A stretch of DNA of 64,000 nt from an uncultured Clostridia bacterium (GCA_948852945.1 CAQPBJ010000001.1:64417-128416); one strand, 5' to 3'. Positions 2,735 through 49,231 are shown, counted from the first letter of the stretch. The notes: generated by a model not told the origin, from the sequence alone. Translations and numbers: made by a program.

Positions 2735-3733
2735 ATGAGAAAAACTAACAATGAAATAATGATTTATGAAGATAAAGATGGCGTGACAAAAGTAAATGTA
2801 AAATTTACTAATGAAGATTTATGGCTTACACAAAATCAATTAGCTAGTATTTATAAAACTACTCAACAAAATATTAGTCTACATATAAAAAGTATTTATA
2901 ATGATGGTGAGCTTCAAGAAAATTCAACTAACAAGAAATTCTTGTTAGTTCAAAAAGAAGGAAATAGAGAAGTAAAAAGAAATATAGATCATTATAATTT
3001 AGATATGATAATTGCCTTGGGATATAGAGTTCAATCAGAAGTAGCAGTTAGATTTAGAATATGGGCAACTGAAAGACTACACGAATACATACAAAAAGGT
3101 TTTTCAATGGATGATGAAAGATTAAAACAAGGTGGAAATAGATATTTTAGAGAATTATTACAACGAATTAGAGACATTCGTTCAAGTGAAAGAAACTTTT
3201 ATCAACAGGTAACAGATATTTACGCAACAAGTATTGATTATGATCCAAGAAGTGATATGACGAAAAAATTCTTTGCAACAGTGCAAAACAAATTACATTA
3301 TGCGGTTCACGAACATACAGCAGCAGAATTAATTTATGATAGAGTTGATAATGAAAAGCCTTATGTTGGGATGACAAATTTTAAAGGCGATTATGTTACA
3401 ATAGATGATGTAAAAATTGCTAAAAATTATTTGTCAGAAATAGAATTACAAAGACTTAATTTATTAGTATCTCAATTTTTAGATTATGCAGAATTGCAAG
3501 CATTAGAACAAAGAAGTATGAAAATGATAGATTGGATAGAAGAATTAGATAATCAAATACTTTTGAATAGAAGAGAAATATTAGAAGATAATGGAAAAAT
3601 ATCTCACGCAGAAGCAATAAAAAAGGCTGAAAAAGAATTTAAAATTTATCGTGAAAGAGAGATAAAAGAATTACAAAGTGATTTTGACATAATGATAAAA
3701 TTATTAAATAATAATAAAAATGAAAGTAAATAA
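2735..3733 (+). CDS. RhuM-family protein
   Basis: 332-aa ORF. Strong SD (AAAGGAGGG) 7 nt upstream. N-terminal pattern (IYEDKDG..V.V....LWLTQ.Q.A.....Q.NIS.HI..I) and central LGYRV...A..FR.WAT are typical of RhuM. Confidence 0.7.
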   Translation: MRKTNNEIMIYEDKDGVTKVNVKFTNEDLWLTQNQLASIYKTTQQNISLHIKSIYNDGELQENSTNKKFLLVQKEGNREVKRNIDHYNLDMIIALGYRVQSEVAVRFRIWATERLHEYIQKGFSMDDERLKQGGNRYFRELLQRIRDIRSSERNFYQQVTDIYATSIDYDPRSDMTKKFFATVQNKLHYAVHEHTAAELIYDRVDNEKPYVGMTNFKGDYVTIDDVKIAKNYLSEIELQRLNLLVSQFLDYAELQALEQRSMKMIDWIEELDNQILLNRREILEDNGKISHAEAIKKAEKEFKIYREREIKELQSDFDIMIKLLNNNKNESK

Positions 3734-3813
3734 TAAAAAAATGACAACAAGTTGTTGCCAAATAGAATTTTAAATCTGTCGAATTCGACGGGATAATAAA
3801 GGAAGTGAAAATA

Positions 3814-3969
3814 ATGAATAAGACTCAAAATAAGAAAAGCGATAATAGAATAGACGAAAATATGCCAAAAATGAACATCAACTGGTTGATTACGATTTAT
3901 TTAAACCCCTTAGCAACGCCTTATAAATACAGAGATTCCACGAATTTAGATCTTACACATTTTGGCTAA
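3814..3969 (+). CDS. Possible 51-aa small ORF, function unknown
   Basis: ATG preceded by the repeated AAGGAAGTGAAAATA element. No recognisable family. Carries one copy of the GATTACGA..TTTAAACCCCT short repeat. Confidence 0.2.
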   Translation: MNKTQNKKSDNRIDENMPKMNINWLITIYLNPLATPYKYRDSTNLDLTHFG

Positions 3970-4091
3970 AAAGAAGCAAAAATCACTAAAAAATCATAAA
4001 ATCATAGCAAATTTAATGAATTTTATTATAGGAATTCAAAAGGTGATTACGACATTTAAACCCCTCAATAAAAGAGAAAGAAGGTGTTAAT

Positions 4092-4952
4092 TTGAAGAAT
4101 AAATTAGAGACGATATCAAATCTATTTGAAGATAAGGAAATAAGAAGTATTTGGGATAGTGAAAAAGAAGAGTATTATTTTAGCGTAGTTGATGTTGTAA
4201 GTGCATTGACAGAAAGTAATGATGCGAGAAAATATTGGTCTGTATTAAAATTGAGATTAAAAAAAGAGGAGTCTGAGTTGGCTACAAATTGTAGTCAACT
4301 GAAATTAAAATCAAGTGACGGTAAATATTATAATCAGGATGTACTTGATACAAAAGGAATTTTAAGACTTATTGAATCAGTTCCGAGTCCAAAAGCAGAA
4401 CCTTTTAAATTATGGTTAGCGAATCTTGGTAGTGAGAGAATTGATGAAGTATTTGATCCTGAAATCGCAATAAATCGAGCAGTAAATTATTATCGTAATA
4501 AAGGTTATACAGACGAATGGATTAAGGCTAGATTAATGGGAATAGTAGATAGATTTAAACTTACGGACATTTGGAAAGAAGGAGGCATAAACAAACCAAT
4601 AGAATATGCTTTACTAACCAATGAAATTTATAAAGGATGGTCTGGAATGAAAGTTAATGAATACAAGGAATTAAAAGGGCTAAGAAAAGAATCTTTAAGA
4701 GATAATATGACTGATATAGAAGTTGCACTTACAAATATAGGAGAGATTGCAACACGAGATATCGCAAGAGAAGAACATCCACAAGGCTTAAAAGAAAATT
4801 TGAAAGTTGCCAAACGAGGTGGAGGAGTTGCTAAAGGTGCTAGAGATTTATATGAAAAGGAAACAAAAAAATCTGCTATTTCTAAAGACAATGCACTCAA
4901 TTATCAATATGTTAATGAACAACAAAAAATAGAGAGTAAAGTTAATGAGTAA
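4092..4952 (+). CDS. Bro-N domain / DinD-like (DNA-damage-inducible protein D family) protein
   Basis: 286-aa ORF. N-terminal Bro-N-like segment (FEDKEIRSIWDSEKEEYYFSVVDVVSAL) followed by a DinD-like helical region. Confidence 0.6.
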   Translation: MKNKLETISNLFEDKEIRSIWDSEKEEYYFSVVDVVSALTESNDARKYWSVLKLRLKKEESELATNCSQLKLKSSDGKYYNQDVLDTKGILRLIESVPSPKAEPFKLWLANLGSERIDEVFDPEIAINRAVNYYRNKGYTDEWIKARLMGIVDRFKLTDIWKEGGINKPIEYALLTNEIYKGWSGMKVNEYKELKGLRKESLRDNMTDIEVALTNIGEIATRDIAREEHPQGLKENLKVAKRGGGVAKGARDLYEKETKKSAISKDNALNYQYVNEQQKIESKVNE

Positions 4953-5010
4953 ATTCACACATTTACCATTAATTACATTTGAATATATAATTAATTTGGA
5001 GTGTGATTTT

Positions 5011-5286
5011 ATGGATAAATATAATATTGAAGAAATTAAAGAAAAATTAGAAAGATGTAAAAGCATGAAACTGGAAGATGTAACGCTAGATGATGTAGAC
5101 GAAATAAGTTCTATAAAAATAGATAGAAGAAAACCTAGTAATGAAAGAATATTAGATTTTTTGACTAAAGTAAAAAATCCATATATATTTAAAGTGAATG
5201 GTAAATTAGTTAGAATTAGATTTTCAGATACAGATAAAACTGCAGAAGATTGTTTAACTAGAGTATTGGAAAATTTATACAGATAA
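5011..5286 (+). CDS. Hypothetical small protein
   Basis: Start moved to the internal ATG at 5011 with a GGAG upstream. AT-rich composition. No family assigned with confidence. Confidence 0.4.
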   Translation: MDKYNIEEIKEKLERCKSMKLEDVTLDDVDEISSIKIDRRKPSNERILDFLTKVKNPYIFKVNGKLVRIRFSDTDKTAEDCLTRVLENLYR

Positions 5287-5303
5287 AGTTAATTGGAGGT
5301 AAA

Positions 5304-5702
5304 ATGAAAGCAATAACAATTAAACAACCATGGGCAACATTAATAGCAGAAGGTTATAAAGAATATGAATTTAGAACATGGAAAACTAAATATCGTGGAG
5401 ATATATTAATTCATGCAGGTAAAGGGATAGATAAAAAGGCAATGGAGAGATTCAAACATTTAAATTTAGAATATCCAGTTGGTCAAATTATTGCAAAGGC
5501 AATAATTACTGATTGTGTCAAAGTTGATGATAGATTAAGAGATGTATTAGCTAAAAAAGATCCAATAGTATATAAAGGCGTAATAAATAAAACATCGAAT
5601 GATTGGGATGGATATGGATTTAAATTAGAAAACATTGAAAAAATAAATCCTATTGAAGTAAATGGTAAATTAAGCTTATGGGATTATGATTATGAAAATT
5701 AA
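5304..5702 (+). CDS. ASCH-domain protein
   Basis: 132-aa ORF. N-terminal IKQPWATLIAEGYKEYEFRTW..YRGDILIHAG matches the ASCH/PUA-like pattern. Confidence 0.65.
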   Translation: MKAITIKQPWATLIAEGYKEYEFRTWKTKYRGDILIHAGKGIDKKAMERFKHLNLEYPVGQIIAKAIITDCVKVDDRLRDVLAKKDPIVYKGVINKTSNDWDGYGFKLENIEKINPIEVNGKLSLWDYDYEN

Positions 5703-5728
5703 ATAATAAGGAGTTATGGAGAAATAGT

Positions 5729-6076
5729 ATGAAACATAGAATGAATTTAAATAATAACCCCTTTAATCTTATAAAGAATGGAACAAAAACTATAGAATTA
5801 CGATTAAACGATGAAAAAAGGCAACTGCTAAAAGAAAAAGATTTGATAGAGTTTACAAATAGAACGACATTAGAAGTCATAATGGTTGAAGTAGTAAAAT
5901 TATACAAATATTCAAATTTTGGCGAGTTATATAAACATTTTGATAAAATATCAATGGGATACGATAAAGATGATTTTGCAAATCCTAAAGATATGGAAAA
6001 ATATTATTCTAAAGAAGAACAAGAAAAATATGGAGTTGTTGGCATAGAAATAAGAGTGATAGAAGATAGGAAGTGA
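5729..6076 (+). CDS. ASCH-like domain protein
   Basis: 115-aa ORF. F.LIKNGTKTIELRLNDEKR pattern resembles YqfB/ASCH. Second ASCH paralog in tandem. Confidence 0.5.
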   Translation: MKHRMNLNNNPFNLIKNGTKTIELRLNDEKRQLLKEKDLIEFTNRTTLEVIMVEVVKLYKYSNFGELYKHFDKISMGYDKDDFANPKDMEKYYSKEEQEKYGVVGIEIRVIEDRK

Positions 6077-6983: not shown

Positions 6984-7385
6984 ATGGAGTTAATAGAAAG
7001 AAAAAAAGACGAAACAGAAGTCAATTTGTTATCACCACTAACATGGGCATATGTAGGAGATGCAATCTATGAACTATACATACGAACCAATTTAGTAAAT
7101 AAAACAAAACTAAAGCCACATAAATTACATATAGAATCTATAAAATATGTAAAAGCAAAGGCTCAAGCAGACATATTAAAAAGATTAATGGATGATTTAA
7201 CAGAAGAAGAAAAAGAAATTGTAAGAAGAGCAAGAAATGCAGAGAATCATCATTTACCTAAGAATGCAGACCCAGAGGATTACATGTATTCAACAGCATT
7301 TGAAGGATTAGTAGGATATTTATATTTATCTAAAAAAGACGAAAGACTAAAAGAAATTTTAGAAAAATGTATAATAGAAGAATAA
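6984..7385 (+). CDS. mrnC: Mini-ribonuclease 3
   Basis: 133-aa ORF with LTWAYVGDAIYELYIR RNase III-like signature. Follows rbgA. Confidence 0.85.
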   Translation: MELIERKKDETEVNLLSPLTWAYVGDAIYELYIRTNLVNKTKLKPHKLHIESIKYVKAKAQADILKRLMDDLTEEEKEIVRRARNAENHHLPKNADPEDYMYSTAFEGLVGYLYLSKKDERLKEILEKCIIEE

Positions 7386-7896: not shown

Positions 7897-7971
7897 TGGT
7901 GACCCCTACGGGAATCGAACCCATGATTCCACCTTGAGAGGGTGGCGTCTTAGCCGCTTGACCAAGGGGCC
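7897..7971 (-). tRNA. tRNA-Glu (anticodon CUC), CCA encoded
   Basis: Reverse complement GGCCCCTTGGTCAAGCGGCTAAGACGCCACCCTCTCAAGGTGGAATCATGGGTTCGATTCCCGTAGGGGTCACCA folds as a cloverleaf. Anticodon loop CUCUCAA. Close to Bacillus tRNA-Glu as I remember it. Confidence 0.85.
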
Positions 7972-15211: not shown

Positions 15212-15420
15212 ATAAATAAGTTAATAAGTTTCCCTACATGGTGCGTTTTTGACAGAGTTTTTAGAACCTACAAGTTTTGGAGAAGGGAGCATGATCTCTG
15301 AATATGGCGTGTATGCTTGCTTTTTAAGTAAGAAACCCAGAAGTATTTAGGACGGCACCCACCTGTTTTAGGACAGGTCCATAAAAATTCTTATTCATGA
15401 CGGCTGATGTGGGGCATTTT
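15212..15420 (+). ncRNA. Candidate structured sRNA, 6S-RNA-like
   Basis: TTGAAG-17-TAATAT promoter (15177-15205). About 200-nt GC-enriched non-coding segment. 5' CCCUACAU pairs with 3' AUGUGGGG, AGAGUUUUU pairs with AAAAAUUCU, with a central unpaired region. Ends in a U-run. Confidence 0.38.
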
Positions 15421-15448
15421 TTAATTAAGTGATTAAATATGATAGAAA

Positions 15449-15618
15449 CTAAATACAGTGAAAAAGATTATTTTGAAAATGCGCTAGCGACCAAACGTAG
15501 TAAAAACATAGTTTTTACGAAGTGCGAATTTGAGCAATCTACAATATAAAAACGGAGTTTTTTATTCAGGAGATTGCGAAGAGCAAATTTTTAAAATAAT
15601 CTTTTTCACTGTATTTAG
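15449..15618 (+). repeat. Structured repeat element, copy 1 (conserved core 15480-15587)
   Basis: Core TGCGCTAGCGACCAAACG-[hairpin]-AGTGCGAATTTGAGCAATCTACAATATAAAAACGGAGTTTTTTATTC-GGAGATTGCGAAGAGCAAA. About 30-bp outer stem (one G-U). Confidence 0.8.
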
Positions 15619-15689
15619 TGCTAATTATATTAAGAACGCCTTTACAACAAAACCTAAAAATGCTAAAATAAAAAGCACTTGGAGGCAAT

Positions 15690-16514
15690 ATGAAAGTAAA
15701 AGAAGCAATTAAATATGGAATAAATGAATTAAATAATATAGAAGAAAAAATAATAAAAATAAAACTATTATTATCATATTGCATGAACGTAGAAAAAGAG
15801 TATTTAATTACACATGATGAAGAAGAATTAAAAGAGAACGTAACTAAAAATTATAAAATAGGCGTAGAAAAACTAAAAAACAATATCCCAATTCAACATA
15901 TAACAGGAATTCAAGAGTTCTATGGAAGAAAATTTAAAGTAAACGAAAATGTTTTGATTCCAAGATATGATACTGAAATTTTAATACAAGAAACTCTAAA
16001 AGTGGCAAAAGACAATGATAAAATACTAGATATGTGTACAGGAAGTGGAATAATAGGCGTAACTTTATCAAAAGAAGTAAAAAATTCTAAAGTTTATGCA
16101 GCGGACATAAGTGAAAAAGCTTTAGAAATAGCAAAAGAAAATAATAAAATACATAATGGCAGAGTAAATTTTATACATTCAAATTTATTTGAAAATATAC
16201 AGGAAACCAACTTTGATATAATTGTTTCAAATCCACCATATATAAATGAAAAAGATATTCAAAATTTAGAAGAACAAGTAAAAAAAGAACCATACATAGC
16301 TTTATATGGGGGAAAAGATGGATTAGAGTTTTATAAAAAAATAGCAAGAGATGCAAAAAAAACAATAAATCAAAATGGGTACATCATATTTGAAATTGGA
16401 TATAATCAAAAAAATGATGTATTAGAAATACTAGAAGAAAATGGATATACACAAATAAAATGTGTACAAGATTTAAATGGAATAGATAGAGTAATTATAG
16501 GAAAGAAGGAATAA
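15690..16514 (+). CDS. prmC: Release-factor glutamine N5-methyltransferase
   Basis: 274-aa ORF with GTGSG SAM motif and the NPPY catalytic motif (IVSNPPYI). Confidence 0.85.
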
Positions 16515-20603: not shown

Positions 20604-20735
20604 GTCGTTGGGAAAAGAATTATTAATAGATTCGATTTTATCTATATTAGAAGGCAAGGGAGCGTATGTATATACGTGACCGCGTTATAATATAGATAAA
20701 ATTGGAGATAGTGATGATTATTTTTCCAACCCGAT
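20604..20735 (+). other. Long imperfect intercistronic hairpin between grpE and dnaK
   Basis: TTGGGAAAA.../...TTTTCCAACCC and ATTTTATCTATATTA/TAATATAGATAAAAT arms with G-U positions. Apical CGUAU-GUAU-AUACG hairpin. Confidence 0.5.
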
Positions 20736-31391: not shown

Positions 31392-31565
31392 ATGGAATTT
31401 AATGTAGGGGATATAGTAGTAACTAAAAAACAACATCCATGTGGAAGCAAAGAATGGACAATATTAAGAGTAGGTGTGGACTTTAAGTTAGAATGCACAG
31501 GATGCGGACACACCATAATGTTAGAAAGACCCAAAGCCATAAAAATTATAAAAAAGAAGATTTAA
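31392..31565 (+). CDS. DUF951-family small protein (57 aa, below the ORF-track cut-off)
   Basis: My translation is MEFNVGDIVVTKKQHPCGSKEWTILRVGVDFKLECTGCGHTIMLERPKAIKIIKKKI. The GD.V..KK.HPCGS..W...R.G.D....C.GC.H pattern is typical of DUF951. AAGGAG SD. Confidence 0.7.
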   Translation: MEFNVGDIVVTKKQHPCGSKEWTILRVGVDFKLECTGCGHTIMLERPKAIKIIKKKI

Positions 31566-44080: not shown

Positions 44081-45868
44081 ATGTTTGATATAGAAGCAGA
44101 AATAAAAAAATTGCCACATAGACCAGGCGTTTATATAATGAGAAATAAAAACGATGAAATTATATATGTAGGAAAAGCAATATCATTAAAAAATAGAGTA
44201 ACCCAATACTTTAGAAAAACAAATAAAACTCAAAGAATAAAAAATATGGTTTCATTAATTGATCATTTTGAATATATAGTATGTGATAATGAAGCAGAAG
44301 CATTAATATTAGAATGTAATTTAATAAAAGAAAATAGACCAAAATTTAATGTGCTATTAAAAGACGACAAAACATATCCATATATAAGAATTGGGATGAA
44401 AGAAGAATATCCAAGTATATTTATAACAAGAAAAATTCAAAATGATGGGGCAAAATATTTTGGACCATATGCAAATCCAGGTGCGGCAAGAGAAATGCTA
44501 AACTTTATAAAAGAAAAATTTCAAATAAGACAATGTAGAACCTTCAAATCGAATGATAGAGCTTGCTTAAACTATCACATAAAAAAATGTTTGGCACCAT
44601 GTATGAAATATATTTCAAGAGATGAATATATGATACAAATAAACCAAATTATAATGCTATTAGAAGGAAAAACATCTAAAATAATAAAAGAATTAGAAGA
44701 AGAAATGAAACAAGCATCAGAAAAATTAGATTTCGAAAAAGCAGCGAACTTAAGAGATAGAATATCTGCAATTGAAAGAATTTCAGCAAAACAAAAAGTT
44801 TCAAATATATCAGAAAATAATATAGATGTAATAGGAATATATAAAAATGAATTATCTGTTTGCATAGAGATCTTTTTTGTACGTGGAAGTAAAATGATAG
44901 ATAGAGAGCATTACTTCTTTGATGATTTAAAAGACATGGAGCAAAAAGAAATAATATCAGGTTTTATAAAACAATACTATATCGGAAAATTAGAATTTCC
45001 AAATAAAATAATGATACAAGAAGAAATTGAAGATAAAGAATTATTAGAAGAATGGCTTTCAAATTCAGCAAATAGAAAAGTAGAAATAAAAGCACCACAA
45101 AAAGGAGAAAAACTTAGATTTGTGGAAATGGCAGAAAACAATGCTAAAATAACATTGGAAAACAAATCAAAAGATAAGTTTGAAATATTAAATGAACTAA
45201 AAGAAATATTAGATTTAGAAAAATTACCACATAAAATAGAAACTTTTGATATATCAAATATTTCAGGAACACATATAGTAGCAGGAATGTGTGTAGCAGT
45301 AGATGGAGTCATAAAAAGAAATATGACAAGAAGATTTAGAATAAAAACAGTATTTGGTCAAGATGATCCAAGATGTACAGAAGAAGTTGTAACAAGAAGA
45401 ATAAAACATTCAATAGAAAATCCTAAAGGTGGATTTGGAACATTGCCAGACTTAATACTAGCAGATGGTGGAATAACTCAAATAAAAGCTATAAAAAGAG
45501 CATTAAAGGAATATGAATTAGATGAAACAATACCAGTATATGGAATGGTAAAAGATGATAAACACTCAACTAGAGCTTTAGTAAATGAAAACAAAAAAGA
45601 ATATGAAATTTCAGATAACTTATTTTTCTTTATAACAAATTTACAAAATGAAGTTCATAATACAGCAATAGAATATCACAGAAAATTAAGAGAACAAGCA
45701 ATGACAAAATCAGAATTAGACGATATTGAAGGAATAGGAAAAGCAAAAAGAGAAGCGCTGTTAAAAGAATTTGGAACAATTGAAAAAATAAAGTCAGCAA
45801 GTATAGAAGAATTGACTACAGTAAAAGGCATTACCAGACAAATAGCAGAAAAAATTAAAAGTTTATAA
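44081..45868 (+). CDS. uvrC: Excinuclease ABC subunit C
   Basis: GIY-YIG (PGVYIMRN..IIYVGKA), UVR domain, C-terminal (HhH)2. Confidence 0.94.
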   Translation: MFDIEAEIKKLPHRPGVYIMRNKNDEIIYVGKAISLKNRVTQYFRKTNKTQRIKNMVSLIDHFEYIVCDNEAEALILECNLIKENRPKFNVLLKDDKTYPYIRIGMKEEYPSIFITRKIQNDGAKYFGPYANPGAAREMLNFIKEKFQIRQCRTFKSNDRACLNYHIKKCLAPCMKYISRDEYMIQINQIIMLLEGKTSKIIKELEEEMKQASEKLDFEKAANLRDRISAIERISAKQKVSNISENNIDVIGIYKNELSVCIEIFFVRGSKMIDREHYFFDDLKDMEQKEIISGFIKQYYIGKLEFPNKIMIQEEIEDKELLEEWLSNSANRKVEIKAPQKGEKLRFVEMAENNAKITLENKSKDKFEILNELKEILDLEKLPHKIETFDISNISGTHIVAGMCVAVDGVIKRNMTRRFRIKTVFGQDDPRCTEEVVTRRIKHSIENPKGGFGTLPDLILADGGITQIKAIKRALKEYELDETIPVYGMVKDDKHSTRALVNENKKEYEISDNLFFFITNLQNEVHNTAIEYHRKLREQAMTKSELDDIEGIGKAKREALLKEFGTIEKIKSASIEELTTVKGITRQIAEKIKSL

Positions 45869-45872
45869 AAAA

Positions 45873-45908
45873 TATGCAGATTAAATTTATTTAATCTGTA
45901 TATTTTTT
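45873..45908 (+). terminator. Intrinsic terminator after uvrC
   Basis: ATGCAGATTAAA-TTTA-TTTAATCTGTAT + TTTTT. Confidence 0.75.
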
Positions 45909-46050
45909 ACTCTGAACAGTGCGTAAATAAAGGAAAATCGTTGACCAATTTACATAATGATGATATAATGAATTCAACGATTGTGAATGCACGAGCAGAA
46001 GTAACTTATTAACAAAGCAGAACGAAAAATAACAATGGGAGGTCATCAAA

Positions 46051-49192: not shown

Positions 49193-49231
49193 TAAAACAG
49201 ATAGCATATTATATAATATACTATCTGTTTT
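49193..49231. terminator. Bidirectional terminator between the rluA-family gene and the histidine kinase gene
   Basis: AAACAGATAG-CATATTATATAATATA-CTATCTGTTT. Confidence 0.7.

Follow-up and report, generated by a model that had tools for sequence, protein, structure and literature searches.

The repeat of about 170 nt that occurs three times in the 64,000-nt stretch of DNA analysed here (the window) represents a real, previously undescribed, non-coding family in an uncultured Clostridia bacterium from the mouse gut, with a G+C content of about 28%. We interpret this family, with moderate confidence, as a structured, MITE-like palindromic family that behaves as a small mobile DNA element and is not a demonstrated RNA gene. 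Strains gain or lose the elements as whole units, including their arms, and the elements also flip in place and exchange modules with one another. Strong constraint acts on their pairing, junction sequence and strand-specific motifs, and the helices are free to vary. The near-random orientation of the copies, the lack of signals for transcription and the polymorphism speak against an RNA gene.

Three copies of the element in the window

An earlier note on this DNA had described three copies in the same orientation, sharing a core of about 105 nt. All three were found on the + strand, and the three-way alignment agreed with the shared core, which is interrupted by one variable hairpin. A 36-nt segment of the core occurs exactly three times in the window, as opposed to zero expected from shuffled sequences. 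The copies, the parts of the first core and the neighbouring 6S RNA gene are located as follows.

15228..15419, + strand: 6S RNA gene (RF00013, 81.6 bits, E = 1.6e-14), not part of the element
15448..15619, + strand: copy 1, whole element, with arms 15448-15479 and 15588-15619 and core 15480-15587
15480-15587, + strand: parts of the copy 1 core, namely J1/2 15480-15495, P2 15496-15522, J2/3 15523-15533, P3 15534-15577 and J3/1 15578-15587
31580..31746, + strand: copy 2, whole element, with arms 31580-31611 and 31715-31746 and core 31612-31713
59138..59349, + strand: copy 3, bounded as the insertion relative to empty sites, with core 59188-59320

A weaker inverted repeat around copy 1 reaches out to 15436-15631. 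Copy 3 has a P2 segment of 52 nt and degenerate arms. With a length of about 170 nt, three copies per 64 kb and about 40 distinct copies, the element is small, non-coding and multicopy in the manner of a MITE. Reading frames in the core are disrupted by indels among the copies. A small peptide encoded in the core was also considered and rejected, because the sole ORF (15530-15712) extends into the variable arm, and indels interrupt it in other copies.

A three-way junction with invariant strands and variable helices

The consensus of 35 copies consists of P1, J1/2 (UGCGCUAGCGAYCAAA), P2, J2/3 (UGCGAAWUUGA), P3 and J3/1 (GAAGAGCAAA), and each element has about 40 invariant junction nucleotides. 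The folding z-scores against shuffled sequence were -9.3 and -11.8 for RNA and -12.6 for DNA; the complementary strand folds too (z = -10.5). The outer stem of copy 1, previously given as about 30 bp with one G-U pair, was refined to 32 pairs, comprising 31 Watson-Crick pairs and the single G-T. The perfect 32-bp stem of copy 2 (32/32 Watson-Crick) and the degenerate stem of copy 3, with 7 contiguous pairs only, were reproduced as they had been described, as were the internal hairpins of the three copies, the GCAAUCU/AGAUUGC pairing and the AUAAAAA-CGGAG-UUUUUAU hairpin. The proposed UUUG:CAAA pairing involves invariant bases, for which the CAAA of the 5' block is an equally possible alternative partner.

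The covariation among 35 copies demonstrated that the covarying helices, the G-U pairs and the three-way junction proposed in the earlier note are real. Pairing cells amounted to 90.4%, as opposed to 69% in shuffles and 43-50% with slid partners, and the covariation score was 0.493 versus 0.137. In P1, 29 of the 31 pairs vary on both sides. P1 is 28-32 bp long in 27 of the 39 scored copies, which together contain 1098 Watson-Crick, 19 G-T, 8 A-C and 31 other pairs. Its inner portion of about 10 bp is semi-conserved (TTTWAAAAT/ATTTTWAAA), and the inner 11 nt of the arm have an identity of 0.56 between copies. The outer 20 bp or so are unrelated among most copies, yet almost perfectly complementary; the pairwise identity of the outer arms is 0.425 compared with 0.409 expected from composition. 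The arms are 88% A+T, and the 5' arm is A-rich (A 0.53, T 0.34), the 3' arm therefore being T-rich on either strand.

P2 is a hairpin of 4-8 bp with a loop of usually 3-4 nt, within a segment of 18-89 nt that is represented by about 40 distinct sequences. A symmetric loop (C-G, G·A, N·N, A·G) is always present at its base. One subtype has NNGAAC-nnn-GUGANN instead of a Watson-Crick stem, with tandem G·A pairs and covarying NN positions. The basal stem of P3 is conserved and occurs in compensatory variants (GCAAUCU/AGAUUGC, GCAAUUG..UAAUUGC and GCAAUCG..UGAUUGC), and the distal part of P3 keeps its pairing with a free sequence. The G·A motifs and the excess of G-T over A-C pairs mark the + strand as the folded strand whose fold matters, since the opposite strand would carry C·U or C·A mismatches at these positions. 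The core additionally contains direct repeats (TGCGAA(n)GAGCAA twice) and the 8-bp palindrome CGCTAGCG. In a subfamily (L001, L024, L046, L059 and L060), the inner stem is interrupted by an asymmetric internal loop at a distance of 9-15 nt from the core. Because this loop is kept, any arm-to-arm templating would be confined to the outer stem.

Occurrence of the family

A scan of one genome per species returned a single match (L001), in a MAG of an "uncultured Clostridium sp.", and the 18-nt 5' block, used to scan metagenomes, retrieved 47 loci, 10 of which were G+C-rich chance matches and the remainder AT-rich contigs with genuine copies. About 40 more distinct copies were obtained in this way from rodent-gut metagenomes and one MAG. 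A profile search of all fetched DNA found no new classes, one additional full copy and some fragments. The density was 3 per 64 kb in the window and at least 26 per 940 kb in the large contigs of one metagenome, or roughly one element every 20-35 kb; extrapolated to a whole genome, this amounts to between several dozen and about a hundred elements. Metagenome assemblies frequently break inside the element. The host range is best explained by a narrow lineage of uncultured, 28%-GC mouse-gut Clostridia.

Neither blastn nor pattern searches gave a match in plasmid records, phage records or viral contigs, and an origin from a plasmid, phage or virus was rejected for those collections. The core sequence was not found in the literature searched either. 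The earlier note could place the repeat in no known RNA family, and this is borne out by Rfam 15, which gave no matches at the copies at gathering thresholds; the families tested include hammerhead, twister, hatchet, pistol, HEARO, 6S and Clostridiales-1. At E <= 10, only spurious long-hairpin matches of the miRNA type appeared at the copies, and Clostridiales-1 reached 12 bits against a threshold of 48.

Filled and empty sites in related strains

Filled and empty sites in close relatives, as known for MITEs, were observed at copy 1 and copy 3. The copy 3 site is empty in L067-L073, none of which contains a core match. In L067, L068, L072 and L073, which were read directly, GATTTTTTATT runs straight into TATTG, or close variants of this junction occur, with neither arms nor core. 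The protein encoded downstream of the site in the empty strains is identical to that of the window, which has about 208 extra nt at this position. The TATT at 59346-59349 is a possible duplicated target of 3-4 bp, (T)ATT, judged from one clean filled/empty pair; the 31 other copies have neither a regular flanking direct repeat nor conserved termini.

Copy 1 is absent from L002-L009, in which PrmC is identical and 54 unrelated nt are found instead of the element, constituting a replacement-type empty site. The flank identity shifts from 92% to 99% across this site. Copy 1 is present in the GrpE-identical strains L074-L078, which represent the lineage of the window itself. Copy 2 is present in 7/7 strain contigs spanning its site (L010-L016); L017 and L018 end inside the element, and L019 stops short of it. 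Among strains, the core of copy 2 differs by a CAGGG loop in L010 and by a C>T change in L014 that creates a G-U pair.

Since the sites are empty in related strains, the copies behave as insertions, even though the empty sites could be precise deletions instead of pre-insertion states. According to the earlier note, an autonomous transposon with the same termini and target-site duplications would reduce the copies to simple non-autonomous DNA elements. We found one part of this picture, namely an empty site and a possible direct repeat of 3-4 bp, but no autonomous parent. Neither a transposase or recombinase nor an autonomous parent was revealed by Pfam scans of 20 ORFs of the window. ORF clustering at all loci and the same Pfam scans yielded no gene that recurs beside the copies or is itself multicopy and could be the mobilising enzyme, and this idea was rejected as well. 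A tblastn search with an IS200 TnpA as query, which is a weak test, gave no match in about 0.7 Mb of related sequence.

As a separate observation at the copy 3 locus, L073 encodes a large serine recombinase (205-1848; Resolvase, Recombinase and Zn_ribbon_recom domains) in place of RecO and HPF. Its position upstream of the copy 3 site suggests an integrated element at that locus.

Exchange and rearrangement of arms and modules

Clearly related arms appear where the flanking sequences have nothing in common (L022 and L032, and the group L026, L035, L058 and L041), which implies that the arms travel with the core. The similarities among arms, P2 and P3 are uncorrelated (Mantel r about 0), and the outer and inner parts of the arm are linked (r = 0.24, p = 0.001). 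Where the arms of related copies differ, most changes are complementary and affect both arms, for example in ratios of 7:1, 6:1 and 9:1. Family-wide, the commonest pair changes are interchanges of AU and UA with no wobble intermediate. Such double changes with few intermediates look like templating at the DNA level and not like stepwise selection on RNA.

Rearrangements were also found within and between copies. The orthologous loci L056 and L063, whose flanks are 92-96% identical, contain oppositely oriented elements, the breakpoint lying in the outer arms, and they differ in the core variant as well. In L026, the P3 hairpin alone is inverted. P3 has been lost from L032, L034 and L054:3975 by deletion between the TGCGAA direct repeats. 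The copy at 7003-7230 of L040 (= L061) is a chimera, in which one arm pair encloses the 5' half of a standard core and, behind it, a divergent "type B" core. The type B core has two GAGCAAYC...GRUUGCG hairpins, the same module as in the standard core, which hints at a wider superfamily.

Two other ideas about the arms were rejected. Inverted duplication of the local target can be discounted, as the longest common word was 8.94 with own flanks and 8.96 with the flanks of other copies. When 31 distinct arms were compared with 50,697 phage records as possible spacer-like phage guides, we obtained one chance match (E = 0.4), in what is a weak test, with the low-complexity filter on and with gut Clostridia phages sparsely represented.

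A second repeat of about 30 nt (consensus CTTGTCAGTGGGGACGnCCTTTTTGGCAAC) flanks the copies of one subfamily (L026, L035 (7427), L041 and L058) in inverted orientation. It lies about 45-90 nt outside the core on both sides and produces a composite palindrome of about 290 nt.

Genomic setting of the copies

The copies are intergenic and, whichever way they are oriented, a median of about 45 nt away from a neighbouring gene's stop codon. Their orientation relative to the flanking genes is near random (++14, --10, +-5 and -+2), and relative to the local GC skew it is split 22:14. The neighbours include PrmC, DUF951, GTPase, HPF and NuoE-like genes, and the copies in the window are located 16-28 kb apart among housekeeping genes. 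Copy 1 sits in the replaced stretch, which starts just after the terminal T-run of the 6S RNA. Between two convergent genes, DUF951 (with its stop at 31565) and the minus-strand gene of a GTPase (31763-32347), copy 2 forms the only hairpin. A consensus scan identified no recurring promoter or terminator in or next to the element. In the terminator scan, no terminator on the + strand was attributable to the element, and a weak minus-strand match involved P2 of copy 2.

Several other features of the window were recorded. At gathering thresholds, Rfam 15 found the 6S RNA, a glmS ribozyme and one tRNA. The glmS ribozyme (41697-41853, minus strand, RF00234, 75.7 bits) is upstream of a 612-aa ORF (39731-41569), which is presumably glmS. 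Two near-perfect AT-rich palindromes that lack the core, at 45866-45909 and 49194-49231, have arms of 21 and 19 bp with one mismatch each and 0-2 nt between them. Both coincide exactly with gene ends and share the A-left/T-right polarity of the repeat arms; they could serve as bidirectional terminators or be related to the element as solo arms. The region 2735-6076 (+ strand) contains accessory-looking genes for a RhuM virulence family protein, Bro-N, DUF6870 and two ASCH-domain proteins, with a tRNA nearby (7900-7971, minus strand), and is possibly a prophage or island remnant. A 133-aa ORF at 6984-7385 (+ strand) resembles Mini-RNase III in sequence. The intergenic region between grpE and dnaK is taken up by an imperfect inverted repeat of 49 nt (78% complementary, 26 nt apart) at 20607-20730. 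Canonical CIRCE was found nowhere in the window, although the hrcA-grpE-dnaK-dnaJ operon is present.

Models for the element

We propose that the element is selfish, non-autonomous mobile DNA, whose + strand, when single-stranded, would fold into the three-way junction. This fold would be read by a trans-acting candidate enzyme that is specific for the structure and the core, instead of being recognised by terminal sequence. The arms may stay complementary because one of them serves as the DNA template for the other. The copying could take place either by quasipalindrome template switching in replication, a process established in bacteria, or by fold-back synthesis in transposition. In read-through transcripts, the hairpin is probably a secondary processing or termination signal, as in other bacterial MITEs, and the A-left/T-right polarity together with the position at gene ends fits such a secondary role.

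The earlier note had left the choice between a functional RNA and a hairpin-propagated element distinct from a plain MITE. The latter idea fits, as the termini are not conserved and only their pairing is. For the former we found nothing specific to an RNA gene, considering the near-random orientation, the lack of a recurring promoter or terminator and the double changes between AU and UA. What speaks against mobile DNA is the contrast between near-invariant junction strands and the saturation of P2 and the arms with changes. The invariant junction indicates strong purifying selection, which a host-beneficial function as RNA or DNA would explain equally well.

One alternative that we consider unlikely is a domesticated cis element at gene 3' ends. 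The element would serve as a bidirectional terminator, an insulator or a stabiliser of mRNA 3' ends, in which the A-left/T-right hairpin acts and the core is a passenger or a protein-binding add-on. The short distance to the neighbouring stop codon in either orientation, the position of copy 2 as the sole hairpin between convergent genes and the A-rich 5' side and T-rich 3' side of the arms on both strands are all consistent with this idea, as are the core-less palindromes 45866-45909 and 49194-49231 at gene ends with the same polarity. Moreover, MITE hairpins acting at the RNA level have been documented (PMC3184786). Yet no G+C-rich stem followed by a U-tract is present in the element, which is dispensable in related strains, and the invariant three-way-junction core would be left unexplained. 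Canonical terminators occur beside 9/34 copies and at 5/25 ordinary gene ends in the window. They are no rarer beside the copies, and there is therefore no sign that the element replaces terminators. Replacement of terminators as such was set aside, since canonical terminators are equally rare in both places and this comparison is uninformative.

It is quite unlikely, in our estimation, that the family represents a multicopy gene for a structured non-coding RNA. The + transcript would then fold, with the 30-bp stem serving for processing (e.g., by RNase III) to yield a core RNA of about 110 nt. By the same account, with equally low probability, the released core RNA would bind a protein or catalyse a reaction. 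The invariant junction, the freely varying helices with strong covariation and the tolerance of P2 for 18-89 nt, which is reminiscent of a peripheral helix, are in line with such an RNA. So are the G·A motifs typical of folded RNA, which persist through sequence change, and the 19 G-T pairs compared with 8 A-C pairs. However, G·A and G·T motifs stabilise single-stranded DNA too, and the changes in the arms are mostly double changes between AU and UA with few intermediates. An RNA gene would also have to work with no recurring promoter or terminator in or next to the element, and read-through would reach the wrong strand in about 40% of the copies given the near-random orientation. Finally, the element matches no Rfam family, is polymorphic among near-identical strains and flips in place.

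A more specific version of selfish DNA read by its shape is distinctly unlikely. Here, the three-way-junction core, the inner stem and one outer arm would be heritable, and the other arm would be regenerated by fold-back, by hairpin-primed synthesis or by nicking resembling terminal resolution by an HUH-type enzyme. Such a cycle would resemble the rolling-hairpin replication of parvoviral T-shaped ITRs. It would account for the perfect but hypervariable outer stem of about 20 bp, the sharp ends, the complementary double changes and the flip/flop.

We regard it as very unlikely that the mobile unit comprises only the core and about 10 bp of the inner stem, inserting into the loops of long AT-rich terminator hairpins already in place, such that the outer arms are host DNA. 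The outer arms resemble one another no more than random sequences do, identical arms were seen with different cores and related cores with unrelated arms, and L044 and L065 have further inverted repeats outside the arms. Likewise, the 19-21 bp of the core-less palindromes at gene ends plus 10 bp of inner stem would add up to the observed stem of about 30 bp. Against this arrangement, both available empty sites are devoid of arms as well as core, homologous arms are found at loci with unrelated flanks (L022 and L032; the F1 group), and the distribution of arm lengths is tight.

A site bound as double-stranded DNA by a host protein, such as one with a role in organising or replicating the chromosome, with incidental hairpin potential, could be suggested by the direct repeats TGCGAA(n)GAGCAA, the 8-bp palindrome of the core and the fairly regular spacing (3 per 64 kb; 26 per 940 kb in the contigs of one metagenome), but is highly improbable, because the pairing of P1, P2 and P3 survives complete sequence turnover, the strand-specific G·A motifs are conserved and the element is dispensable in related strains.

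Returning to the mobile DNA that we favour, the usual bacterial interspersed repeats have conserved ends that are read by a transposase, whereas here the ends are free and the central branched fold is conserved. If this fold is recognised by an enzyme, the collection of about 40 or more variants serves as a natural experiment showing which parts of the three-way junction are required, and it points to a mobilising enzyme of uncultured gut Clostridia with specificity for structure. Should the core instead function as an RNA, it would represent a new multicopy RNA class. The element also marks strain-level variation beside housekeeping genes in mouse-gut MAGs and breaks metagenome assemblies.

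Comparison with known systems

Several known classes of structured sequence share single features with the element. Intrinsic (Rho-independent) terminators consist of a short G+C-rich hairpin and a T-run, which the + strand of the element does not have. The inverted repeats are reminiscent of retron msr-msd, but no reverse transcriptase is adjacent, the neighbours being of the housekeeping type (PrmC, DUF951, GTPase, HPF and NuoE-like). Three-way-junction ribozymes and other structured Rfam RNAs likewise combine conserved junction strands with varying, covarying helices; a perfect closing stem of 30 bp, random orientation and insertion polymorphism are atypical of them.

The integron attC sites are similar in that structure is conserved over sequence, one strand is folded and recognised, and unpaired bases matter. 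However, attC sites have conserved R/L boxes (R''/R' core sites) at the base of the stem, a variable centre, and a tandem cassette array with an integrase, whereas the Clostridia element has a conserved centre and a variable base and is dispersed among housekeeping genes.

REP/REPIN sequences, associated with RAYT (HUH/Y1), and IS200/IS605 derivatives (PATEs) are also dispersed extragenic palindromes that are read as a folded single strand and produce no target duplications. In REP, the tagged stems (GTAG/CGTC) are conserved and the loop or spacer is variable, which is the reverse of the Clostridia element. REP/REPIN palindromes are G+C-rich and 20-40 nt long with a GTAG/CGTC tag, as opposed to stems that are 88% A+T with no tag at the ends. 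IS200/IS605 elements have a strong orientation bias with respect to replication, and we rejected a replication-coupled orientation of this kind for the Clostridia element, whose copies are split 22:14 relative to the skew. Moreover, IS200/IS605-derived elements have two distinct subterminal hairpins instead of a single global fold-back, and no TnpA-like ORF was detected in 0.7 Mb, which is a weak test of PATE membership.

The ITR of parvoviruses (AAV) is a T-shaped hairpin, in which a long stem closes two short internal hairpins, and it exists in flip and flop forms. By analogy, the Clostridia element may be compared with it for the three-way junction and for an internal part that is found in two inverted orientations (L056/L063, and P3 of L026). 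It differs in not being located at the end of a linear replicon, with no Rep/HUH gene found among the ORFs of the window, and in that the flipping can be explained by recombination between the arms.

Closest in kind, by analogy, seem to be bcr1, ERIC and the Correia elements, with bcr1 as the closest precedent. The Correia/NEMIS, ERIC, RUP and Nezha MITEs are small, intergenic and multicopy, form a long hairpin from their TIRs, occupy filled and empty sites between relatives and encode no transposase gene (PMC3184786). Classical MITEs keep the sequence of their TIRs, which they share with a parent IS, and have target duplications. In the Clostridia element, only the pairing is kept and the central part is conserved; the identity of the outer arms (0.425) is close to the 0.409 of random sequence, and plasmids, phages and viral contigs contained no related sequence.

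The bcr1 repeat (group A BCR) of the Bacillus cereus group (Firmicutes) is non-coding, about 155 bp long and dispersed in tens to more than 100 copies, whose positions are not conserved between strains. It has a cruciform-like predicted fold with compensatory changes, is mobile and transcribed, and has no known dedicated transposase (PMC3184786; PMC6542083). The Clostridia element resembles bcr1 in being dispersed and non-coding, in its compensatory base changes and in the lack of a known transposase. The two are not similar in sequence, and a blastn search of PLSDB, which includes bcr1-bearing B. cereus plasmids, gave no match (PMC6542083). The element is distinct from BCR group A in sequence and host, and also in its flanks: bcr1 is flanked by 5-bp TTTAT direct repeats, whereas the Clostridia element has none of these and no regular duplication. 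Furthermore, bcr1 copies are alike over their whole length, in contrast to an element with an invariant core and a varying outer stem. Compared with both bcr1 and the MITEs, the layout of the Clostridia element is inverted, with a conserved core enclosed by a hypervariable terminal stem.
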